A stretch of 63,782 nucleotides of DNA, filler included, from Reticulomyxa filosa (taxonomy: Eukaryota > Protista > Foraminifera), in NCBI GenBank assembly GCA_000512085.1. It is 19 parts of 19 records of this genome, joined end to end, with 100 filler letters (N's around TTAATTAATTAA, not from the genome) between each part and the next. Parts side by side here need not be neighbours in the genome. Positions count along the whole stretch, not along the records: positions 27,567 to 37,008 come from ASPP01004499.1; 18 more parts are not named here. One strand, given 5' to 3'. Position 1 is the stretch's first letter; every line of letters begins with the position of its first letter. Shown one piece after another: positions 27,567 to 50,657 of this stretch. Under the pieces are notes generated by a model that saw only the letters and a program-made list of their open reading frames with translations, made no database searches and was not told the DNA's origin. Both the position numbers and the translations under genes were made by a program.

Positions 27567-27598
<32 letters not shown>

Positions 27599-27610
27599 AA
27601 AAATAAAAAA

Positions 27611-28323
27611 TTAAAAAAAAAAAAATATATGTTTTTGTTTTTTGGTTTGGTTTGTTCGTGGGGAGGAAGTGAACTTTGTAAGCTTTTGTGTGATAAAGTC
27701 TTTGAAGTTCTTTTCGGTCTGTTGGATGAACTGTGGAGCGTCGGCCTCCAGCCTGGAAATCTTAGTAGACGCTTCCTGCTGCTGACTGCTGTCGACGCAA
27801 CCTTTGAGCGTGTCTCTCCAAAACGCCAGCGTCATATCAAAATGCTTTTGCGCAAAGTGCGAGCAGTATTCGCTTGCATTGTCCTTGTATTGTTGAAATA
27901 AATTCTTTTCGAACTGCAGCAGCTCCTCTCCGATCACCTTCTTTTCTTCTCGCTCGCGCTTCTTAAAAAACGGTGAACCCGTCATGAACTCTAGCGCTAT
28001 CTTCCTCGCTTCGTGAGGTACCGTATTTCCTTTCGTCTGAGGGGTTTTTTGACCTGTTTGTGTCGTTGGTGCATCTCGTCCCAATGACATTATTTTATAT
28101 AAATAAAAAGGGGGAGTGTTTTTCAACGTTTTTTCGCATTATTGAAAACGGGTCCCTTCCCCCTTGGATGAAGTTTTAAGTTTGTCCAACTTTTTCTGAT
28201 ATTTTTGCTTTTTTTTTTTTCTCAGGTGAAAAATAAGCTAAATTTTGTAAGGAGAAGACTTTTACAAGTTTTTTGTTGTTTGAATAAAGAACAGTTTCAT
28301 TTTCAGTGGTGAATGCTGACATG
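27611..28323 (-). CDS. Hypothetical protein, 5' part
   Basis: Elevated-GC ORF 28126-27611 and a possible short first exon MSAFTTENETVLYSNNKKL|gt; no motif recognised. Confidence 0.4.
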
Positions 28324-28416
28324 TTATCAACAAAGAGGAAATATTTGCATTGGCAAACCAACACAAAAAAAACTTTGCCATTTAAAATTCCTTTGAAGAA
28401 ACAACAAAAAAAAGGT

Positions 28417-29200
28417 TTACGAGTAATGGGTATTGAGTTGTTTCTGTCTGACTTTATTTTCAATATCAGTTAAAACACGATCCCAAGCCAAGAATTTCTG
28501 AGAGACCAAATAAACCTATTATACATACACATAGAACACATAGAAATAGATTTTGTTTGTTTGAAAAAAAAAAATAAATAACATAACATAATCATTATAA
28601 TTGGTTAAAAAATCATCCAATTGTTGTTTAAAATGGAGAGTATCCAATAAAAGAGATTGTGTATCAAGTTCAGCTTTGACGAGAATGGAATCAGTTTTGG
28701 TGAGATCTCGAATGGGATTGTGATCAAGAGCGACACTTTTAAGTTGTTCAACTTCAGCCAATTGAACTGCCATATGTTTAAATTCAGAAAATGCTGATAA
28801 TAATATTGCTGTTTTTTCTGTGGTGCTTACAAATGGTTTATCTTTAAATTCTTTATCCAAAAATGATTCAAATTCTTCATATTTCGCTACAACATCTTTT
28901 ATATCTTCATTTTCTTTTTCTACTTCCTCATATCGTTTTACTAATTCATCCAATTGTTTTGCTAAATTCGTTGTTCCTTCTTTTCTTATGCAAATACAAA
29001 AAATACAATATCAATATCAATATATAAATATATGCATATCATTTTATTTTAATAAAAAAAAAAAAACTTGTTTGTTCCAAAAATTCTTCTCTGTTCACTG
29101 CATCACATAAATGTCTCTCCACAGATTCTACACGCTTCTCCAAATTTTGTATATCTTCTTCTCTTTTTTCTACACTGGGCTCTGAAGAAATTGTTGTCAT
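28417..29200 (-). CDS. DCTN3: Dynactin subunit 3 (p22/p24)-like, 3 exons
   Basis: Spliced product: IQNLEKRVESVERHL ... FLDKEF...TEKTAILLSA ... LTNYNDY|VYLVSQKFLAWDRVLTDIE, matching the DCTN3 pattern YNxxxxxxSxxFxxWDxxL; ~200 aa. Confidence 0.75.
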
Positions 29201-29533
29201 TTTTTTTTTTTATAGCTTTATTATTACTCAAAGTTTTTTTTTTTGCAAAGAGAGGAGGCTTTACAAAAAAAAATGGTACAAATAAAAAATCAAAAAATCA
29301 ATACTCTAAACACATTCTTTGTGTTCATGAAATGTTTTAATTAATTTGGTGATGAAGATATTAAATAGTTATAATCAAATAAATATGTAATTATTCTGTT
29401 TACAATTGAATATTTTTTCATTATCAAAGTTAATCAACTTTCGTCAGTGTAATCATTAACCTTTAAAAGAATGAGTTTTTCCATGTACTTCCATTTTTAA
29501 ATAATCTAAACTACTTGATTTTTTCGTTAACAA

Positions 29534-30660
29534 CGTGAGCAACAAAACCTTTCAAACTTTGAAAGAGTTGCCCACTCCACTTAGTCAAGCTCAATGTGTA
29601 CCACACAAACACGAAATCCTTATTTGTGGAGGTTGGGAGAAAATAGCGTTATTCTTATCATACAATCAAAAACGAATACAAGCTTGTCTGTGAGTATCGG
29701 AGTGATGTTATATTACAAGGACACTGTGTAGTGAAATTAATAAATGACAACAATAACAAAAACAGCAATAATCACTTTGTTGTCTTTTGGATCTTATATG
29801 TTTGGAAAAAATAAACATACATTGGTGATGAAATATGTAAATGCTTGGAATAATATATCAAACAAATCAAATAAATTAAACAATTACAATCAATGGATAC
29901 CTTTCACAAACAATTACAATCACCCAATTATCATTGGAACAGATGATTATAATTATTGGGGAGTGTGTGCAGTGATTGGTGGAGGTAATAATCATTTGTT
30001 ATTTATTACTTATCTTGATAATCATATTGTGTGTTTGATTTAAATATATTTCAATTCATTAAACATGATTATTTACCAGTCCAATTATATTCAATTATCA
30101 TTGCTTTGTATTAAATTCAGTCAATGAACAAGGACGAGGAACAATGAAAATACATGAAGAAAAAAGTAAACACAAACATAAAATAGTGTTGTTTTGTAAA
30201 CGTACATGATTATCAATTGAATGTGATGAAGATAACAACACTTTTCAATTTAGAAAACTATTTTTAGAATGTATGAAATCATTATATGCATATGCTTGTA
30301 TCAATGATGTTATTATAATCAGGCTTGTTCAAAATTAGTGCACAACATTCAATTCGAGAAGCCAAATTGACGATATTTGAAAACACTATACACAGTCCAT
30401 TGAAAGATTGTGTTGCAACATTGAGTGAAGAAGACAATCATATACACATCATTGGAGGAGAAGATGATAAAGAAACAATAGATCAACTCAAGTAAAGACT
30501 AAAGTGATGTATTGGATTCTTCACTGTTGGTAATGATTTGTCTATTTATTGTGTCGATGAAACACAACATTGTATTGATTGATAATAATAAATAATGAAT
30601 AGTCAAAAATGAAATAAAATTGATTGTTGAATATTAGATTCGAATTAAATGATTTTGAAC
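29534..30660 (+). pseudogene. Kelch-like beta-propeller family pseudogene
   Basis: FQTLKELPTPLSQAQCVPHKHEILICGG, GHCVVKL, TLLSFG, HTLVMKY, AVIGG, HIHIIGG with frameshifts and stops; terminal exon SKNEIKLIVEY*IRI. Confidence 0.8.
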
Positions 30661-31452
30661 TGCATAAAACAACAAGTTTATTATAGTATATGCTTATTGG
30701 AATCATTGATATTATATTGCTTATACTAATCGAATTAAATAGATATATTAATGTGATTAACTTGCATTCAGCATCATTAAATTACTTTTCTGAAAATTTA
30801 TACCTCTTTTGACTCAATACCAACTGTACACAACAAAAGATTAAAATCATTTTAAAGATAGCAATGTTTTTGTTTGTGATATAGTGAAACTACTGCCATC
30901 AATTGCATAGTCAAAGATCTTGCTATCTGAGCCGTAGTGGCAGAAAGTCACATTATGCTCTCGCAAAAGATTTTCAGGTTATCTTGGAACAAAATTTTTT
31001 TGCCATTTGTTTCATGATCTTCTATTGTTGACATAATGCGTACAGGTATATTGTAGTAAAATTATTTAAAGAACAGTGATTTTGTAACTAGTGATAAAAA
31101 AAATGTAATTATTGAATTAGTTTGGACAGTAGAATATTAATCGCAATCATGTTAATTAAGAAAAATGTATTTTTTGTGTAATCGCAAATAAAAAATTTTT
31201 AATTTTTATGTGTAATTGCAGATGAAATAAATGTGGATTAAATTTTTTAGATGCATGAGTTTGCTTCTTTAACAAGGTAGGTTCATTTTTTTTTTATAAC
31301 AAGATGCCAAAGCACGTAACGTCTTAATATAATGTTCATGATGGTAATTTTAAGTCTAAAATCTTGTCATAAAAGATCATTACAGCGAAAAAAGGCGAAA
31401 ATCAATATTTTACAGCATAAAAGACTTTTAAAAATCATTTTTCAATAAAAAC

Positions 31453-34400
31453 TCAAAAAGTTCCACCATATTGTTCAACAACAGACATCTGCAACAAAGT
31501 TAAACCTTTTGCATCTTTCCAAGTACTGTCCCTTAACGATAAACCACTTCTTTGAACACCACCTTGCCAAATGCATTTCCACAAAGAGATTCTTTCGTTT
31601 TGAGAACATACAGATTTTTTGTCATCTGATGTAAAATGAATCAAATTTGAACTATTACTGTACAATCGAATAGTACTATCACCTGAGGCAGACAAAATTC
31701 TGTTACCATCAGGCGAAAATTGAACAGAAGTAACATGATCTGAATGGCCTTCAATAGATTGAATTTGTTGCCCAGATTGTATATCCCACAATCGAATGGT
31801 TTTATCCTTTGAACTAGATACAATTCTGTTGCGATCAGGCGAAAATCTCACAGAAGTAACATCTTTTGTATGACCTTCAAAGCATTGAATTTGCTTTCCA
31901 GATGATGTATCCCATAATCTAATCGTTTTATCATCTGAACCCGATACAATTCTGTTGCTATCATGTGAAAATTGCACAAAAGTAATAGTATTTGTATGGC
32001 CTTCGAAAGATTGAATCCGTTTTCCAGATATATCCCACAAGTGGATAATTTTATCATGTGAACCAGATACAATTCTGCCACCATCAGGTGAAAAGTTAAC
32101 AGATGTAATGCCTTTTGTATGGCCTTCAAAACATTGAATTTGTTTACCAGACGATAAATCCAACAATCGAATTATTCCATCGAATGAGCCAAATACAATT
32201 CTGTCACCATTAGGTGAGAATTGAAAAGAACGAACAAAAAATGACTCAATGTCAAAAAACTGAATTTGTTTTCCTGACGTCACATCCCACAATCGAATGC
32301 TATGATCAACTGAAACAGATAAAATTTTGCCACCATCTGGTGAAAATTGAGCAGAAGTAACACAATCTGAATGACCTTCCAAAGATTGAATCTGTAGTCC
32401 TGATGATGCATTCCACAATCGAATAGTTTTGTCATCTGAGCCAGAAACAATCTTGCTGCCATCTGGTGAAAATTGCACTGAATTGACTATCCGTGAATGA
32501 ACTTCTAAAGACTGAGTTTGTATTTTTAATGATACATCCCATAGTCGAATTGTTTCATCATATGAACCAGATACAAGTTTATTACCATCAGGTGAAAATT
32601 GAACAGAAAGGACATGACCTGAATGGCCTTCGAAAGACTGAACTTGTTTTCCAGATGATACATCCCACAATCGAATGGTTTTATCAAATGAGCCTGATAC
32701 AATCCTGTTACCATCAGGTGAAAATTGAACAGAAAGGACATGACCTGAATGACCTTCAATAGATTGAATTTGTTTTCCAGATGATACATCCCACAATCGA
32801 ATGGTTTTATCAGATGAACCAGATACAATTCTGTTGCAATCAGGCGAAAATGTCACAGAAGTAACATTTCCATTATGACCTTCAAAGCATTGAATTTGTT
32901 TTCCAGATGATGTACTCCACAATCTAATAGTTTGATCATCTGAACCAGATACGATTTGGTTACCATCATGTGAAAAGTGTACAGAAGTAACAATATTTGT
33001 ATGGCCTTCTAATGATTGAATTTGTTTTCCTGATAATGGGTCCCACAAGCGGATTGTGTTATCGAATGAACCAGATATAATTTTGTCACCACTTGGTGAA
33101 AATTGAACAGAAACAACACAGTCTGTATGACCTTCAAAACATTGAATTTGCTGTCCAGATGACACATCCCACAGTCGAACTGTGTTATCATATGAACCAG
33201 AGACAATCCTTTTACCATCAGGTGAAAATTGAACAGAAGTAACTTCTCCTGTATGATCTTCAAAACATTGAATTTGTTTTCCCGATAATGCATCCCACAA
33301 TCGAATGGTATTATCCTCTGATCCAGATACAATTCTGTTGCCATCAGGTGAAAATTGAACAGAAGTGACACAATCTGAATGACCTTTGAGATAACCATAT
33401 TCACCAAAGTTAACTTGATTTACTGATGCATTTGTAAAATTAGTATAACTGAGACAAGCCCTGAAGAAGCTAACATTATCTAAAACAGCACCTTTGAAAC
33501 TCGTTCCTTCGAGGAAACCATAATCTAGAATGGCGTGTGATATATTTATCTTATCCCAATTTTGGTGACTCATGCTAACTCTTGCCATGTTGAGTATTGT
33601 TGCTGCATTTGCTGCTGCAATAGACACATTTGAATTAGTTTTAGAAGATTCAATAAGTCGAAATAATCGTGACTTTAAATTAACAAATAGCAAGTTGTCA
33701 TCATAAATTCTATTTGCAATAAAGAGAATAATTCCCATTTCTTCATTTAATAATTTTCGATTGATAAGAAATTGTTGAGCGTGCATTTCAAATTGTTGCT
33801 GAAACTGTTGATTATTAATATTAACAGCACTCGGCTTCCATGAAATAATATCAAATATGATTTTTTGTGCGGCAAAATACTCTTGACATGATTTATGTAA
33901 AAATTGATATTTATTGCCGCTAACTTTTCTCAACACATATTTTGCAATACTATCACCATTAAAATATTGTTTCCAAATATCTTGTGTCTTTTCAACAGAT
34001 ATTTTAGTGTTATTTACTTTTGGTTCTAATTTTTCATCCGTATGTTTAGTTTCTATTTCTATTATCGGATCCAATTTACTTGAAATGTTATCATTTTCAT
34101 TTTCTTTATAGTCATTTTCTGTTGCAACTTGATTTCCTTGAATAAACATTTCAAATGCTAAATCTTGACAGTATTGTTGAAATGCTGCTTTAATTTTTTT
34201 GAGGTTTGTTTGAATCCTTAATTCTGATAATTTATTTACAATATTTTTTACGTAAATATCAATCCATTGTTCATTGAATGCTTCATAAATTTGTGCTTTT
34301 GATATTTTAGTTCCAATTGGATGTTGTTTCATTAACGACGGTAATACAGTTAATATCATTCGAAGTAAAAATGGCTCTTCCATCATTTTATTCAAATTTG

Positions 34401-36810
34401 GAAAATGTTTCAATGTTTCTTCATATTTTTGTACTGTCCAATCCAAATTGTCGTTTATTTTATTTTTTTTATTCATTTTCACAAATTTATCTATATATCC
34501 ATTCATTTGTCCTTTTGAAAAAGGCCACAAATATATCATTGATGTTGTTGTTATGTTCTTTGAACCAATTAAAACATGTTGAATATCTTCGTCATTTAAT
34601 ACGTGACTTCGACATGTTACTATTATTTTTGCATTCCATTCACATAAATTGAATCGATCATAAAAATATCTTTCATTATTTTTATTTCTATTATATTTGT
34701 CAAATATTTCATCAAATCCATCCAATATAAATACAAATGAAATATTTTCACAAATAACATCAATTATCTCTTTATTGATTTGTTTCATTTGTAAAGCTTG
34801 AGAAATGATTTGTTTTTCATTTAATTCACTATAACATTTTGGTAATGAGATACAAATAGGAATGAATGTTGTTAAGCCGTTTACATATGATTCCCATAAT
34901 ACTCCTTCTAAATGACGACAGAATAAACTTTTTCCTGATCCTGATTTTCCTTGTAATACTGCCACTTGTTCACTTTTTTTTTCTTTCTTTTCTTCTTCCA
35001 AAAAATCAATTATATGTTGATGGCAATCATATGAGTTATTGTTTTTATCATCATTGTCAGTATATGGATAATTATTTGCCTGTAATGGAATATACATTTC
35101 AAGTGCTTGTAACACGGTTGTATCCTCTTCTAATTCTTGTTTTCTTGATTCTTTTAATATCGATATAACATCAACACAGCTTGCAGGATTCATTTCACCC
35201 ATAATGTGTTTCTTAAAATATTCAAATGAAAGTACATAAACAGCTTGTCCTTTCATTTCCTTTGGATTGAATTTACAAAGTTGATCATAAACAAATTTAA
35301 TCAATTTTAATGGGATATCATTTTTGGCGTTGACTTCTTCTTCATTTATTCCTTTTAATTGTGGAGGCTTCAATATCCGAATTTCTGAGTGTGGCTTGTA
35401 ACGATTTGCAATTTTTTTGATTTCTTTTGCATCAATCCATTCACAAATAACATCATTAATTTTAGTCAATGTTTCATCACTTGCTTGTTTTAATTCCTCT
35501 TCTAACGGATTATTAGGTTTCCATGCTCGAATATGTTCATAAAATAAATGACTTAAGTTTGGATTTTCGATCACAGTGTATCCTTCCAACGTTGTAAAAT
35601 TCTTTAATGTCGCTTGCATTTCAATATATACATCATGTTTTGGAACATATAATCTAATATTGTGAAATCGATGATGTGTCTTTGATTTTTTTTCAAAGAA
35701 ATCTTTATCTTCAGACACAATCAAATTGAATTGTTCAGCTTTTTTCATTACTGCAACTGCAGTTTGTAATTTGGTCGAATTATCACATAAAATTGTAAAT
35801 CTTCCAATGTCAAACACTTGATTAAAATCACCACCATAATCTGCTTGAATCTTTTCCAATAATCTTTCATTTCCTTTTAAACTTGGTGGTTTCACAACTG
35901 TGATCTCGTATTTCTGCAGTTCTGTCACTAAATTGTTTATTTCAATACTATCCATTGCATGTTCACTTCTTTCTCTCAAATCTTCAATATTTTTTGCATG
36001 TTGTCTTACTTTGTTTGCCGTTAATTTATAAGACAACCCTGGTTTGATTGTATACAAAGATTGATAATTGTTATCTTTCACAGGTATTGAGCCATTTGCG
36101 CAAATCGAATGTTCGGAATTGTAGAACATTGCTTTGGCAATTAAATTGACCGTTGATTTTTTACAATCAGGACAACTAAAAGATGTCTTGTCTGATACGA
36201 AAGTAATGTTATAAAATCCAATATTAATCCATACTGGTAATTTGGCTTTTGATGCCAAACAGTTTTCATTGATGCAATATCCTTGTAAGTTAATTCCGGG
36301 CTTTGTTTCTCCAATTTCTGTTATTTCCATTTCCTTTTGAACGCTTTTGTTATTGTTATTGATTTCATTCATTGTATTTCCTTGTTCTTGTTTCTATTCA
36401 TTGTTTCAAACAACCAAAAAAAAAAAAAAAAGACAAAATATGTAATACAAAAACAAATGAAATGATTTTTATATATTACCTGTTCTGTTTTCTCCTCTAA
36501 TTCATTGGTTTTGGGTTCTGCTTCTAATTTGTGCTTTATATGCATATATAAATAAATATTCATAATTACTGATAAAACAGAAAGACTTACCTCCTTTTCA
36601 ACAAATTTGTTGCACAAGTTCTTTAATCACCAATTCAATATTCCCACTATGATATTCTATTTTCTGCCGCAATTCTTCTTCATTGATCGAATCTCCGAAT
36701 AAGCGGACCAATGTCTTTATTTCTTTGGCATATGTTCGATCTTTTTCATTTATATCACTGCGATTATTCTTGTTGTTGTCTTGCATACCTCCCTTACATT
36801 TCATACTATC
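31453..36810 (-). CDS. NLR-like STAND protein: CUE/UBA-like + Zn-binding domain + RelA/SpoT-like nucleotidyltransferase + NACHT + pentapeptide repeats + 14 WD40
   Basis: 1639-aa ORF with Walker A GKSGSGKS, Walker B FILDGFDE, IIVTCR, PFLL and YQFLHKSCQEYFAA (NACHT signatures); RelA/SpoT-like motifs at aa ~160-285; 14 WD40 repeats of ~42 aa; upstream exons 36533-36480 and ~36810-36591 splice to an acceptor at 36393. Confidence 0.9.
31660..33390 (-). repeat. 14 tandem ~126-bp WD40-coding repeats
   Basis: Consensus GHxxxVxSVQFSPDGxRIVSGSxDxTIRLWDxSSGKQIQxFE, counted 14 times. Confidence 0.95.
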
Positions 36811-37108
36811 TGTTAAAACACAATTTGACATTATCTTTTTTTTCCCATGCAATATATTCATATTTGTATATAATAACATTTTGGGATCATACCTGTATTT
36901 TGAAAATCGACAGGAATTACTCCAAGTACGTCAATACTTCCGTGATACCTCATCAGATTCACCGTTGACAATGTTGCAAAGGGATGAACGCTAGTTATTA
37001 CCTTTTTCNNNNNNNNNNNNNNNNNNNNNNNNNNNNNNNNNNNNNNNNNNNNTTAATTAATTAANNNNNNNNNNNNNNNNNNNNNNNNNNNNNNNNNNNN
37101 NNNNNNNN

Positions 37109-43820: not shown

Positions 43821-44463
43821 TAAAGTTGAATTTTTTATTTGTTGAATTATATGTGTTAGGTTATTTAACTAGGGTTGCAGTGGTTATTGTGTGAGATGAC
43901 TGGATCGGTGGCAATACTACTAAGGGCATTAATAACATAAGAAATTAGAGGAATCGAATGATATTTTATAATTCCAACAGCAGCATTTCCATAACTTTCT
44001 ATTTTTGAGGCCTATTTAATCATATTTAGAACGAACACAAATATATACACAAGTACAAATACAAAACACAAATACATACAAATAAATAGACAAAACAAAC
44101 AAATCTTGTTTAATTTGAGTTATTATATTTAAAAATAAAATAGAAATATAAAAAAAAACAAACACTTAAATGGTTTTATCTTATGATTTCCACAATTCAA
44201 TATACCATAATCCATGAAAATACCATTCTATCCTCTATTTCTTTGTTATAATGCCCCTTTCATAATTTTTTCACCAGAATTTCACAAATGTGTTTGCAAT
44301 ATATTGGTCTATCATCCCAAATTGGTTTGGTCATTTTACGTTTTCTTACTTATTTTAATGTTGNNNNNNNNNNNNNNNNNNNNNNNNNNNNNNNNNNNNN
44401 NNNNNNNTTAATTAATTAANNNNNNNNNNNNNNNNNNNNNNNNNNNNNNNNNNNNNNNNNNNN

Positions 44464-45371
44464 GTGTATGGGATGTTGATAATAACAAACAAATTCAATC
44501 ATTCAATAGACATTCAAATTCTGTGAATTGTGTAAAATTTTCATCATATTATTATCATAATCATCATCGACATGTCATTTGTTCTTCATCAGATGACAAA
44601 ACCATTCGTTTTTGGGATTTCAAACATAATAAACAATTACGAATATTCCATGGACACACTAATGGTGTTTATGGAATTGAATTTTCACAATTTAATGGTG
44701 GTAGATATTTGTCTGGATCTGTTAACAAAACTATTCGTTTATGGGATGTTGAAACATCAAAATCATTACATGTTTTCAATGGACATGAAAGTTATGTTTC
44801 GTGTGTTGATATTTCACCATTACAAAACAATATTAATAATAATAAAATGAATAATATTGGTGTGATTGGTGGAAATGGATATACAATTTGTTCTGGATCA
44901 GATGATAATACAATTCGATTATGGGATATTGAAACAACAAAACAATTGAATGTATTTGAAGGACATGACAGTTATTTGTCGAGCGTAAAATATGGATCAA
45001 ATGAATTAATGAATACAATATTATCTGGATCAGATGATGACAGTATTCGTTTATGGGATATTCGATCTGGTAAACAGATTCAAGTATTCAATGGACATGA
45101 AAATACTGTGAATGCTGTTGAATATTCACCATTTGTAATAAAGAATAGTATTGGTAATTCAAATGTGATATGTTCTGGATCATTTGATAATACAATTCAA
45201 TTTTGGGATATTCGATCAAATAAGAATCAATTGTATATAATTGAAGAAGATGATGGAACATTATGTCTTAAATTTATTATATTGAAAAAGAAAAAGAAGA
45301 CAAATAATGTTACATATGATTTAAATTTGTGTTATGGTTCATACAAAGGTCCCATTCATATTTGGGGATAA
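44464..45371 (+). CDS. WD40-repeat protein of the expanded family, 3' part
   Basis: Repeated GH...ICSGSxDxTIRLWD(I/V)ET/RS units, GGNGYTICSGS, C-terminal LNLCYGSYKGPIHIWG*. Confidence 0.9.
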
Positions 45372-47063: not shown

Positions 47064-48300
47064 CCAAGAAAAGAGGTGGAAGATAAGATATGCTTTGGTT
47101 TTCAATGCAAATATCGCAATTGGCTCAAAGTGAAGGTGAAACTATTGCAAAATATACACGCAAATGCAAATGCAAATACAATAATAACAAATGTATCAAA
47201 CGACAATAATTTGACAATGAGCGGCGGCGACAAATTGTTTATCAATTTTTTGAAAAGCACTTATACTAAACCACTATATGTCAAAGATAAAATAATGGAG
47301 CCTGTTAATGTCCAAGTTTTGTTGCAATCTCTGACACCTATGTGATTGTGAATAGATTTTCGTTGTTCCAAAAATTGGTGACTTTACTCACTCTAAATAA
47401 ACAAATTTTTTTTTTAAAAAAATTTGTTTATTTAAACTTTTTTTGTTCTTTTTTTTTCTTTTTTGCTATGTTGTTATTACAACGTATACATCTTTTGTTT
47501 TGCTTGGAAATGACCAAGATGTGATAGAGACCAACACAATATACAAATACGAAAAATGTTCAGTATTATTTATATTGAGCAGAAAAACGTCGTCGAATTG
47601 GATAAGTGTAATTGATATTAGAACACACACACACAAATATCTCATTTCAACGTTCGAGCGTATGCCGACCCATGTAATACACTACCATGTCGTCGATCGC
47701 ATTTGGACCATTGTGGAGGGAAACTAAAAAAAGAAACACCTCTGACAAGTATATGGGAAATGAATGGTCCAGATAGACGGCAATGGAAAATCAAGAGAAA
47801 CATATGGATCGAGTTGTTGGCGACTGAAACACGCCCTTTGCATGGTGTTGGTGCACTTGGCAAAGATAATACCAAAAAAATAAATTGACATAGCCGTCGA
47901 GAGGACAGATTGAAAAGAAATCAAAGCGCTTGTCACCAGAACTGTACGGACAACTTACACAATAATATGGACATCTCTGTTCCTCACAATGTTGATATGA
48001 AACTTTGGTCAATGCGTTGAAACAATGCCTTTCCGTATGGATCGTTAAGTGAGCAGACTGATGATATTTGGTAAATCTCGGCACACGACAATAGCATGCG
48101 TAGGGAGTGTCTTATTCACTGTCATAGCTCCTTCACACCATTGCAATACACCGATAGAGTCCGCTATACTTTGATGCAATCAGGCATGCTTCTCGCTAAC
48201 AACGTGTCCCACTTACATTACCAACAAATATTGGTGATGATGAGTTTGATTAATTGCGCATTGAATTAGGTCAATATCGATCAGTTGTCCATAATATTTT
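47064..48300 (+). pseudogene. Decayed coding-like sequence, family not recognised
   Basis: Short consecutive plus-strand ORFs broken by stops, with moderately raised GC. Confidence 0.3.
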
Positions 48301-48405
48301 TTTTTNNNNNNNNNNNNNNNNNNNNNNNNNNNNNNNNNNNNNNNNNNNNTTAATTAATTAANNNNNNNNNNNNNNNNNNNNNNNNNNNNNNNNNNNNNNN
48401 NNNNN

Positions 48406-49152
48406 CAGACCGAAGCGACCGAACGCATCAGCACGGCCACCGAACAGTTCAGCCAGCAGGTAGGTGCTGCGGCAGGCCAGGCACGACAAGCACGCAAGCA
48501 AAGTGATGAGGCCACCATCAGTGCAGCGAGCGGCCAGCAAGTGATTGCCGATGCCGTGGCCAGACTGGACGAAATCGGCACCCTGGTTGGCGACACGCAA
48601 GCCAGTATCGACGAGCTGGTCACACGGCTGGACAGCATCAGCGCCGTGATCGGAGTGATCCGTGATGTAGCCGACCAGACCAACCTGCTGGCGCTGAATG
48701 CGGCTATCGAGGCGGCGCGTGCTGGCGAGCAAGGGCGTGGCTTTGCCGTGGTGGCCGACGAAGTACGCAAGCTCGCCGAGCGGACCAGCCAGGCCACCGG
48801 TGAAATCACCCACACCATCGGCAGCATTCAGGTTAACAGCCAGCAGGCCAAGCAGCGCATGGACGAAATGGTACTGCAGCTGCACGGTGGCATTGCCCAG
48901 GCGCAAGATGGTGGCCAGGCGGTCAGCGTCATCCGGCAGGGCACCGAGTCGGTTTGCCGCGGCATGCAGACAGTCGAGCAGCTGTTGCAACAGCAGGCGG
49001 ATAACAGCCAGGCCATCCGTCACGATCTGCGCGAGGTGGCCAGCATTGCGGTATCTACCCGCGCTGCGTCGGAACAGACCGTGCAGATGGCGCATGCCAT
49101 CAGCGACGCGGCTGATGAGTTGGCGGAGCTATCTGGTCGCTTCCGCTTATAA
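48406..49152 (+). CDS. Bacterial methyl-accepting chemotaxis protein, C-terminal signalling domain (5' truncated)
   Basis: [43 protein letters not shown] hairpin signature; ends GRFRL*. Confidence 0.96.
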
Positions 49153-49248
49153 GTGTGCCGCAGCGCTAGCATGCGGCCTTGGTTTGATCTGACACAGCAT
49201 ACCGGGTAGTCGGCTATTTACGTATCAGCCATCTCTATTGATACTGCT

Positions 49249-50016
49249 ATGGATCCGATTCTGATGCTGGAGATGCCCGTGCCGCGATGCCTGTTCGCCC
49301 TGTTGTGCTGCTGCCTGAGTTTGCCACTGCTGGCGAGCGAGCAGCTCACTTTGGTGGCAGAAGACGACTGGGCGCCGTACGCATCGGTACAGCATGGTCA
49401 AGCCTACGGCATGGCGGTGGATATCGTTCGGGCCGCCTACCTGGCGGTGGGGGTGACAGTCCGCTTTCGCAGCATGCCCTACGCCCGCTGCATGAAGCTG
49501 GTGGAGGTTGGCCGCGAAGTGGGCTGTTTCAACAGCCTGAAAGACAGCACCACGCTGCAGCACTTCGCGTTTGGCAAACAGCCGCTCTTTACCGCTACCA
49601 TCGCCATTTACAGCCACCAGCCCGAGAGCGGGATAACCGTGGCCGGGCTGGCCGGCAAGCGCGTGGGTTTGACCAACGGTTACACCTACGGCAGCGAGGT
49701 AGAGCAGGACAGCCGCATGCTGAAAGACAAGGCGGTGTCCGATCTGGCCAGCTTGCGCAAACTGGTGGCCGGCAGGTTGGACTACGCGCTGGTGTATACC
49801 CGCGTTGCCGACCAGTTACAGCGCGAGTACGGCCACGAGTTGTCCGGTCGCTTGTTCCGGGTGGGTACCGTCATCGAAAACCCGCTGTTTGTCAGTTTTT
49901 CCCGCCACAACCTGCGCAGTGAATCGGCTCGGTTCCAACTGGACCGTGGCTTGCAGCGCTTGCAGCAAAGTGGTCAATACCAGCAGATCCTGCAGCAATG
50001 GCACGCCGCGCCGTAA
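49249..50016 (+). CDS. Bacterial periplasmic substrate-binding protein (family 3 / ABC amino-acid type)
   Basis: Signal peptide, EDDWAPY, GMAVDIVRAAY, MPYARC, GYTYG, KLVAGRLD, SGQYQQILQQW; start may be 49273. Confidence 0.88.
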   Translation: MDPILMLEMPVPRCLFALLCCCLSLPLLASEQLTLVAEDDWAPYASVQHGQAYGMAVDIVRAAYLAVGVTVRFRSMPYARCMKLVEVGREVGCFNSLKDSTTLQHFAFGKQPLFTATIAIYSHQPESGITVAGLAGKRVGLTNGYTYGSEVEQDSRMLKDKAVSDLASLRKLVAGRLDYALVYTRVADQLQREYGHELSGRLFRVGTVIENPLFVSFSRHNLRSESARFQLDRGLQRLQQSGQYQQILQQWHAAP

Positions 50017-50156
50017 GGCGCTAGCGACGTAACACGCGTCGCTTAAGCTTTTGCCAGATCCAGCGTGCCGCCACGCCGGCAACCATCAACAGCAGCCGTT
50101 TGCGCACAGACATCAACGGCCTCCTGGCATGCTGGCGTAGACGTACTGCTAGCCCG

Positions 50157-50546
50157 TCAGCCCGGAAACGCCACCACCTGATAGGGTTGGCTGACCGGTG
50201 CCTCCATACCCGGGCTGCCGGCCGGCATGCCGGCGACGGCCAGGCCGCGAATGGCCGGCTTCTCTTTCAGCAGCCGTTTCACCACCTTTGCCGGCACGTG
50301 TCCTTCGATCACGTATCCGCCCACCCGCGCCGTATGGCAGCTTTGCAATGTGCCCGGTACCCCCCATTGCTGCTTCACCCGCGCCATGTCTTGCTGCTCG
50401 GTGGTTTGCAGTGTGATGCCATTGGCTTGCATGTGGGCGGCCCACTTGTGGCAGCAGCCGCAGGACGGGTTATGGAACATTTGGCCACTCGTGGCCGCCA
50501 GGGCCGGGCCGCTGAGGCTGGCAAGCAATAACACAAGGGAACGCAT
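50157..50546 (-). CDS. Bacterial DUF411 (CopG-like) periplasmic metal-binding protein; 3' end probably frameshifted
   Basis: Signal peptide, PSCGCCHKWAAHM, SCHTA..GGYVIEGHVPA, GLAVAGMPAGSPGME. Confidence 0.9.
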   Translation of the reverse strand: MRSLVLLLASLSGPALAATSGQMFHNPSCGCCHKWAAHMQANGITLQTTEQQDMARVKQQWGVPGTLQSCHTARVGGYVIEGHVPAKVVKRLLKEKPAIRGLAVAGMPAGSPGMEAPVSQPYQVVAFPG

Positions 50547-50657
50547 GGTCGGGGCTCCGGAACGGTGATGGCGATGTGAGTGCCCGCCATGCCGCGAGTT
50601 CCCGCCCGATTCATGCGATACTTGCTGTTTTTTGCTGAGTTCGGCAGGCAAGGACGC

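Follow-up and report, generated by a model that had tools for sequence, protein, structure and literature searches.

The window analysed here is a stretch of 63,782 nucleotides from the foraminiferan Reticulomyxa filosa, made up of separate contigs chained by N linkers, and the gene considered lies on the contig at window positions 27567-37008. It joins a predicted RelA/SpoT-type alarmone synthetase domain to a NACHT NTPase and an array of WD40 repeats. The motif peptides quoted in the original prediction, which saw here a NOD-like receptor (NLR)-like protein with an alarmone-synthetase effector, were all found together with the NACHT domain and 14 WD40 repeats in a single stop-free frame of 1646 codons on the minus strand (36393-31453). 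From the ATG at 36372 this frame gives a product of 1639 residues (P0001), identical to residues 145-1783 of the R. filosa record P0004, which is annotated 'WD-40 repeat protein'. The layout is indeed NLR-like, with an effector on the N-terminal side, a NACHT with intact Walker A and B motifs and a C-terminal WD40 array. The proposed order of enzyme, NACHT and WD40 parts thus stands, but the enzyme is not N-terminal, being preceded by a Cys4 domain and a CUE-like helical domain. The features along the gene are the following:

36591..36786, minus strand: exon 1, encoding a CUE/UBA-like small helical domain (from the sequence and GT..AG sites)
36480..36533, minus strand: exon 2, a short charged linker (AG/GT borders; several paralogues run on with a similar KLE stretch)
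36019..36303, minus strand: Cys4 beta-rich domain, residues 24-118 (GxNLxGxCxxxxC ... CPxC; motif and model)
35368..36018, minus strand: predicted RelA/SpoT-type synthetase domain, residues 119-335 (core 156-285), Tas1/Apk/EAS-like (Pfam, models and alignments)
35083..35367, minus strand: helical connector, residues 336-430 (helices in the model; less conserved, with 5% invariant columns)
33523..34965, minus strand: NACHT STAND NTPase module (Pfam match at residues 470-628, plus a helical/winged-helix part to about residue 950)
33403..33513, minus strand: pentapeptide repeats, residues 954-990 (Pfam match at 954-983)
31657..33399, minus strand: 14 WD40 repeats with hypervariable top-face positions

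Profile and modelling evidence together confirm that residues 119-335 form a real RelA/SpoT-type synthetase domain, as had been claimed. Pfam RelA_SpoT (PF04607) matches the isolated domain at residues 166-253 with an E-value of 3.3e-5 and 24.6 bits, below the 27-bit cut-off that is reached by two relatives, P0003 (30.2 bits, two copies summed) and P0060 (27.0 bits). The proposed comparison of an AlphaFold model with solved structures recovered the fold of the RelA/SpoT homologue (RSH) synthetases: a Foldseek search with the model of residues 119-335 (pLDDT 76) placed Tas1 first (E 7e-7), with RelP, SaEAS and RelQ-type structures next, and Tas1 again came first for a second model spanning residues 20-441 (pLDDT 86). 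The VIA Z of the domain model was 11.9 against Tas1 (rmsd 3.6 over 168 residues), 9.3-11.2 against other small synthetases and CapRel (10.5 for CapRel), 6.7-9.1 against most long RSH enzymes and about 6 against pol-beta and cGAS. Given this last value, as opposed to 10-12 for RSH synthetases, a cGAS/OAS or pol-beta assignment was rejected. Further, Tas1 was the only PDB match of the family profile (E 0.002), and a language-model search returned bacterial clusters at 0.94-0.96, one of which has RelA_SpoT on 34% of its members. Scans with NCBIfam and PADLOC gave no meaningful match, and matches to nucleosome-assembly proteins were treated as chance. In the BFVD database, structure matches to the model (identifiers A0A7D3R1N1, S4W648 and A0A3G4ZQ93) include a Fadolivirus RelA/SpoT-type protein alongside giant-virus ubiquitin/RING proteins.

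The anticipated paralogue family is large, with 88 core-spanning domain rows among 159 collected proteins. Three overlapping word-based searches, with family size taken from protein clusters at 90% identity, returned 56, 59 and 99 proteins, all from R. filosa save the metagenome sequences P0060 (64%) and P0154 (43%). The core identities of intact copies range from 48 to 98%, with one pair above 97%, which argues that they are mostly distinct loci; on these sequences we estimate about 70 intact copies in R. filosa. A P-loop and three or more WD40 repeats occur together in the proteins that house 36 of the 88 rows, and many of the others are fragments. With spliceosomal-type introns in the gene and dozens of paralogues in R. 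filosa, contamination by bacterial DNA was rejected. The motif residues of this copy are K166, R170 and K174, D188 and R191, the altered G-loop at H233-N238, E251 and Q253, and H275 and Y278. D188 and E251, on whose conservation among paralogues the original prediction had staked itself, are retained in 85 and 81 of the 88 rows, respectively; the corresponding counts are 85 for K166, 83 for K174, 85 for R191 and 81 for Q253, and 71 rows, including those of this gene and P0154, keep all ten core residues. Invariant columns make up 35% of the enzyme core, the highest share in the protein, compared to 24% of the NACHT P-loop and 11% of the Cys4 domain. This pattern of conservation points to an enzyme core that is real and under selection. 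Donor-site residues matching those of FaRel2, as mapped by motif order, are also retained (PMC11782079), and the synthetase is likely to be catalytically active, judging from its residues.

Within the RSH superfamily, the signatures read from the alignments made in this analysis are of the Tas1/Apk/EAS type, viz., KxxxRxxxK, the DxxR spacing, a short helix-to-Asp linker, ExQ and H..Y..R. The claimed RelA/SpoT fold holds, narrowed to this type rather than the RelA, RelP or CapRel types. There is no GYRxxH loop as had been read: the GYRD/GYS G-loop of the Tas1/Apk/EAS clade is absent, the site being H233-H234-R235-F236-H237-N238, and in the alignment the GYRDLN of exported synthetases stands opposite HHRFHN. 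The same HHRFHN is retained in P0154 and P0060 at 43-64% identity. An HMMER search returned 126 matches, of which 71 are distant; among these, KxxxRxxxK occurs in 69, the short DxxR spacing in 67, GYRD in 39, an intermediate HYRD loop in two (P0192 being one) and the canonical spacing in none, and several carry PAAR, MuF or extracellular contractile injection system (eCIS) delivery domains. In 401 Pseudomonadota genomes the family profile found six genes, one per genome, comprising four exported synthetases with signal peptides, an effector resembling Tas1 (judged by eye to be PAAR-type) and one phage-like gene; in the class of G002 it likewise found single genes in three of 401 genomes, and a long RSH enzyme scored 1 bit with it. 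The best phage match comes after a portal gene, with a (p)ppGpp hydrolase-like gene two genes further on, an arrangement also described for Apk2 loci (PMC10083569). Bordetella phage PHB04 (L001:2071-4336) carries an unannotated Apk-type synthetase directly after its portal gene, and then come a small gene and one resembling a hydrolase.

In two trees, built from rows picked by similarity to the query, with long branches, and without fungal rows, FaRel, CapRel, PhRel or any tRNA-targeting toxSAS, the Apk/EAS rows and the amoebal domains split from long RSH and RelP/Q-type synthetases (100/100; SH-aLRT 99). Excluded from the second tree were L003-L005, L009, L019, L022, L023, P0027 and P0047, as well as 19 fragmentary or degenerate family-like matches, the distant matches missing anchor motifs, and L029, which has no extractable domain. 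On sequence signatures and models, we group the domain with Tas1, Apk and the exported synthetases and not with the RelA, RelP, RelQ or CapRel types. The likeness to Tas1/Apk1, Apk2, SaEAS, VpEAS and AaEAS is one of fold and motif signatures; those enzymes are of bacteria or phages, delivered by PAAR, MuF, Sec or type VII secretion and often accompanied by immunity genes (PMC10083569; PMC12691689). In contrast, the R. filosa domain is eukaryotic, fused to NACHT and WD40 parts, has HHRF for GYRD and is predicted to be cytosolic, with no hydrophobic signal or transmembrane segment in P0001 or P0004.

On the receptor side, Pfam NACHT matches residues 470-628 above its cut-off (E 2e-8), and among the 81 P-loop-bearing members of the family, 73 have the Walker A motif GKSGSGKS and 72 have DGFDE. 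Pfam also recognizes the pentapeptide stretch and 14 WD40 stretches, which are mutually 64-90% identical and likely form a double propeller; it finds no HET domain in this protein. The repeat positions GH+1, +2, +3 and +5 and SGS+1 and +3 are spaced exactly as positions 10, 11, 12, 14, 30 and 32 of the HET-E repeats, which are those under selection in that protein (PMC12222747). Across 386 family repeats, no positions vary more than GH+3 and SGS+1. Pooled pairwise dN/dS is 1.78 at the six HET-E-like positions (1.3-2.6 on bootstrapping over repeats) versus 0.31 at the other 30, in a test whose repeat pairs are non-independent and whose site list was fixed after per-position variability had been viewed. 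As far as so rough a test goes, the variable positions fit diversification of ligand binding.

We propose that the gene encodes an NLR-like receptor with a Tas1/Apk/EAS-type effector, which would likely be activated by a non-self ligand of the WD40 repeats and would then likely produce a pyrophosphorylated purine nucleotide, with (p)ppApp as the most probable one; we give this reading slightly better than an even chance. Binding of the ligand would switch the receptor on, with nucleotide exchange and oligomerisation releasing the enzyme from inhibition, on the model of HET-E and of NACHT proteins in bacteria. The freed enzyme would then make a pyrophosphorylated purine nucleotide that, as for Tas1 and Apk, may drain ATP or block purine synthesis, so that the affected part of the cell would be shut down or bacteria inside the cell would be acted on. 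Its putative role would be in ligand-gated immunity or allorecognition, as the original prediction had it.

Several observations weigh against this proposal. On the identity of the enzyme, the Pfam score falls short of its cut-off, and the VIA Z of Tas1 lies within 1 of those of SaEAS or RelQ, which gives no separation between them. On its activity, 17 of the 88 rows miss a core residue, partly through gene-model gaps and in two cases as alignment fragments. The position of the G-loop Tyr (234) is His here and in 72 of the 88 rows, and the Asp of GYRD is replaced by Phe in this gene. A Tyr-to-Ala change in the G-loop kills the toxicity of four toxSAS enzymes, with FaRel Y175A partly active (PMC7229694), and with His in place of this Tyr activity is not assured. 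On the product, the Apk/EAS clade is not specific: Apk1 and Apk2 make (p)ppApp, VpEAS and AaEAS (p)ppGpp, and SaEAS both (PMC12691689; PMC10083569), and hence the product cannot be read from the sequence. As the output of this domain, (p)ppApp leads at something short of an even chance; another or new acceptor, including tRNA, is a distinctly weaker candidate, inactivity a little weaker again, and (p)ppGpp the least probable. On the ligand side, top-face positions are variable in many WD40 proteins, the dN/dS test has the weaknesses of design given above, and the identity among the repeats is moderate, unlike the near-identity in het-e.

The rival that survives best, although we think it unlikely, has an enzyme of low rate, its acceptor site rebuilt, that would make a nucleotide second messenger, (p)ppGpp-like or new, to be read by host proteins as in cGAS- and TIR-type systems. 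The HHRFHN loop, fixed in the family and in distant relatives, suggests a changed acceptor or rate, and carrying dozens of copies of a toxin of Tas1 strength would be dangerous in the absence of an immunity gene, of which the 9.4 kb contig of this gene showed none. The same enzyme module also stands behind a transmembrane receptor in P0051, an R. filosa protein of 1017 residues with a signal peptide, extracellular repeats, a transmembrane helix at about residues 426-444, a coiled coil and an intact Cys4-synthetase but no NACHT, which we read as a putative surface-receptor version. Against a messenger role, the nearest characterised relatives are toxins. Less probable still, catalysis may be dead or crippled, leaving a nucleotide-binding module that serves the receptor as decoy, sensor or scaffold. 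Tyr and Gly are both missing from the G-loop, and degenerate copies do occur (the first module of P0003, P0163, P0166); P0003 and P0118, both of R. filosa, have tandem Cys4-synthetase modules, with the second copy of P0003 intact. However, D188, E251, Q253 and the basic residues of the donor site hardly vary, conservation of the core exceeds that of the NACHT, and Tyr at position 234 in 13 of the 88 rows indicates that an aromatic residue is kept. Pyrophosphorylation of the tRNA 3' end with a block of translation, as by CapRel or FaRel2, is very improbable despite the structural match to CapRel, the N-terminal helices before the core and the altered acceptor loop, because the signatures and best matches are of the Apk/EAS type, membership of which makes this output less likely, and because FaRel2 shows S70 and a D90-R95 spacing that is longer (PMC11782079), as against R170 and D188-R191 at these places in the R. 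filosa domain.

The proposed toxin-clade receptor has partial precedents. As the original prediction noted, RelA_SpoT is listed among the domains found at the N-terminus of some fungal NLRs, and an identical three-part order of RelA_SpoT, NACHT and WD40 is listed for Gaeumannomyces graminis (PMC4986451). Such NLRs are rare in that source, at <1% of annotations, in contrast to the numerous intact R. filosa copies, and the Cys4, CUE-like and pentapeptide parts are extra in R. filosa. In a later fungal survey, RelA_SpoT formed no well-covered cluster (bioRxiv 2022.03.16.484565), and no fungal sequences were identifiable among the matches of this analysis. For bacterial NACHT proteins, alarmone synthetases are listed as enzymatic effectors in a single mention that gives no subfamily, and that main text is silent on Reticulomyxa and Rhizaria (bioRxiv 2022.07.19.500537). 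The Podospora HET-D/HET-E (HNWD) proteins share the NACHT, the WD40 double propeller and equally spaced variable positions, but have a HET effector, unusually high repeat identity and the partner HET-C (PMC12222747), whereas the R. filosa protein has a synthetase effector and more divergent repeats. CapRel similarly holds a sensor and an RSH toxin on one chain, but with pseudo-zinc-finger gating, a tRNA target and other motif spacing (PMC11782079) in place of a STAND NTPase. Stray eukaryotic synthetases have been reported in fungi, Dictyostelium and diatoms (PMC3153485). With fusions already listed for fungi and bacteria, the receptor design is known; for such fusions, neither a toxin-clade enzyme nor a rebuilt acceptor loop, a large expansion or a foraminiferan host was found in print. 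A literature search covering few subscription papers gave nothing on Reticulomyxa with NACHT or ppGpp, the 16 papers on alarmones and NACHT included none about protists as judged by title, and Reticulomyxa is not named in the Apk1 homologue supplements of PMC12691689.

Beyond the family itself, 43 of the distant matches were scanned for fusion partners, and these were TPR in five, DUF285 in three, LRR in two, P-loop/WD40 in one and ankyrin-NACHT in one. Apk/EAS-type synthetases with TPR, LRR, DUF285, kinase or P-loop/WD40 parts occur in P0182, P0194, P0197, P0204, P0226, P0230, P0235, P0237, P0240 and P0244. These possibly constitute a wider set of sensor-coupled alarmone synthetases, and on the more tentative reading given below the TPR, LRR and WD40 fusions would hint at an immune output based on alarmones that has gone unrecognised in other eukaryotes. 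The ankyrin-NACHT protein P0192 aligns with the R. filosa protein from the synthetase through the NACHT (27% over 803 columns, E 4e-68) and shares a clade with the amoebal domains in a quick tree (SH-aLRT 95). Its signal peptide and ankyrin layout presumably resembles that of proteins of intracellular bacteria. P0192, P0177 and P0176 all have signal-peptide-like starts and ankyrin or TPR repeats, and their synthetases group with the amoebal domains. Given the shared module, intermediate loop and clade of P0192, transfer of the synthetase-NACHT module as a unit is possible. More tentatively, and on balance improbably, the foraminiferan may have taken this module from an intracellular bacterium, rebuilt the acceptor loop from GYRD to HHRF and expanded it to an immune repertoire of at least 70 intracellular WD40 receptors and a surface receptor, with an alarmone of adenosine or some new pyrophosphorylated messenger as the common signal. 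Pattern scans of metagenome, genome and viral contigs found no related locus, and a plasmid tblastn search found nothing.

We know of no demonstrated case of a eukaryotic immune receptor whose output is alarmone synthesis, and our literature search found none. If the proposal is correct, (p)ppNpp would join NAD cleavage and cyclic nucleotides as an immune chemistry common to bacteria and eukaryotes, and foraminifera would gain a first candidate system of immunity or self-recognition. The family offers a concrete test case, with a toxin-clade enzyme in a 217-residue domain, defined catalytic mutants and hydrolases of the Aph1 and SpoT type to type the product, and its altered G-loop is a probe of what determines acceptor choice in these enzymes.

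The Cys4 motif is present in 88 of the 159 collected proteins, and the domain, modelled confidently as strands, is likely to bind zinc. Giant-virus ubiquitin/RING proteins, which also match the model in BFVD, probably do so through this domain (aligned ranges are absent), and rotifer clusters with a low recognition score are a further lead; an 18-residue match at locus L010 was treated as chance. Upstream of it, the two exons appear from their borders to be spliced via GT-AG introns. The exon 1 segment is carried by 22 of the collected proteins, mostly continuing into LVQQ-[SF]-[VI]-EKE; Pfam CUE matches it weakly in the paralogue P0106 (E 0.005) and not in this gene copy. In this copy, exon 1 is out of frame with exon 2 by one extra base in an A run at 36606-36608, which may reflect a real lesion or an error of assembly; even so, the enzyme-NACHT-WD40 protein is still whole from the in-frame ATG.

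The neighbours on the same contig are an intron-split dynactin p22 gene (27611-29297, minus strand; Pfam E 2e-12 for 28519-29007) and kelch-like fragments, judged as such by eye, and they are uninformative on receptor function. On a separate contig, positions 44412-45371 (plus strand) encode WD40 repeats 37-41% identical to those of this gene, probably the end of another family member. Positions 48001-52000 and 60001-62000 have 44-55% GC compared to about 30% elsewhere, and these contigs are possibly foreign DNA in the assembly.

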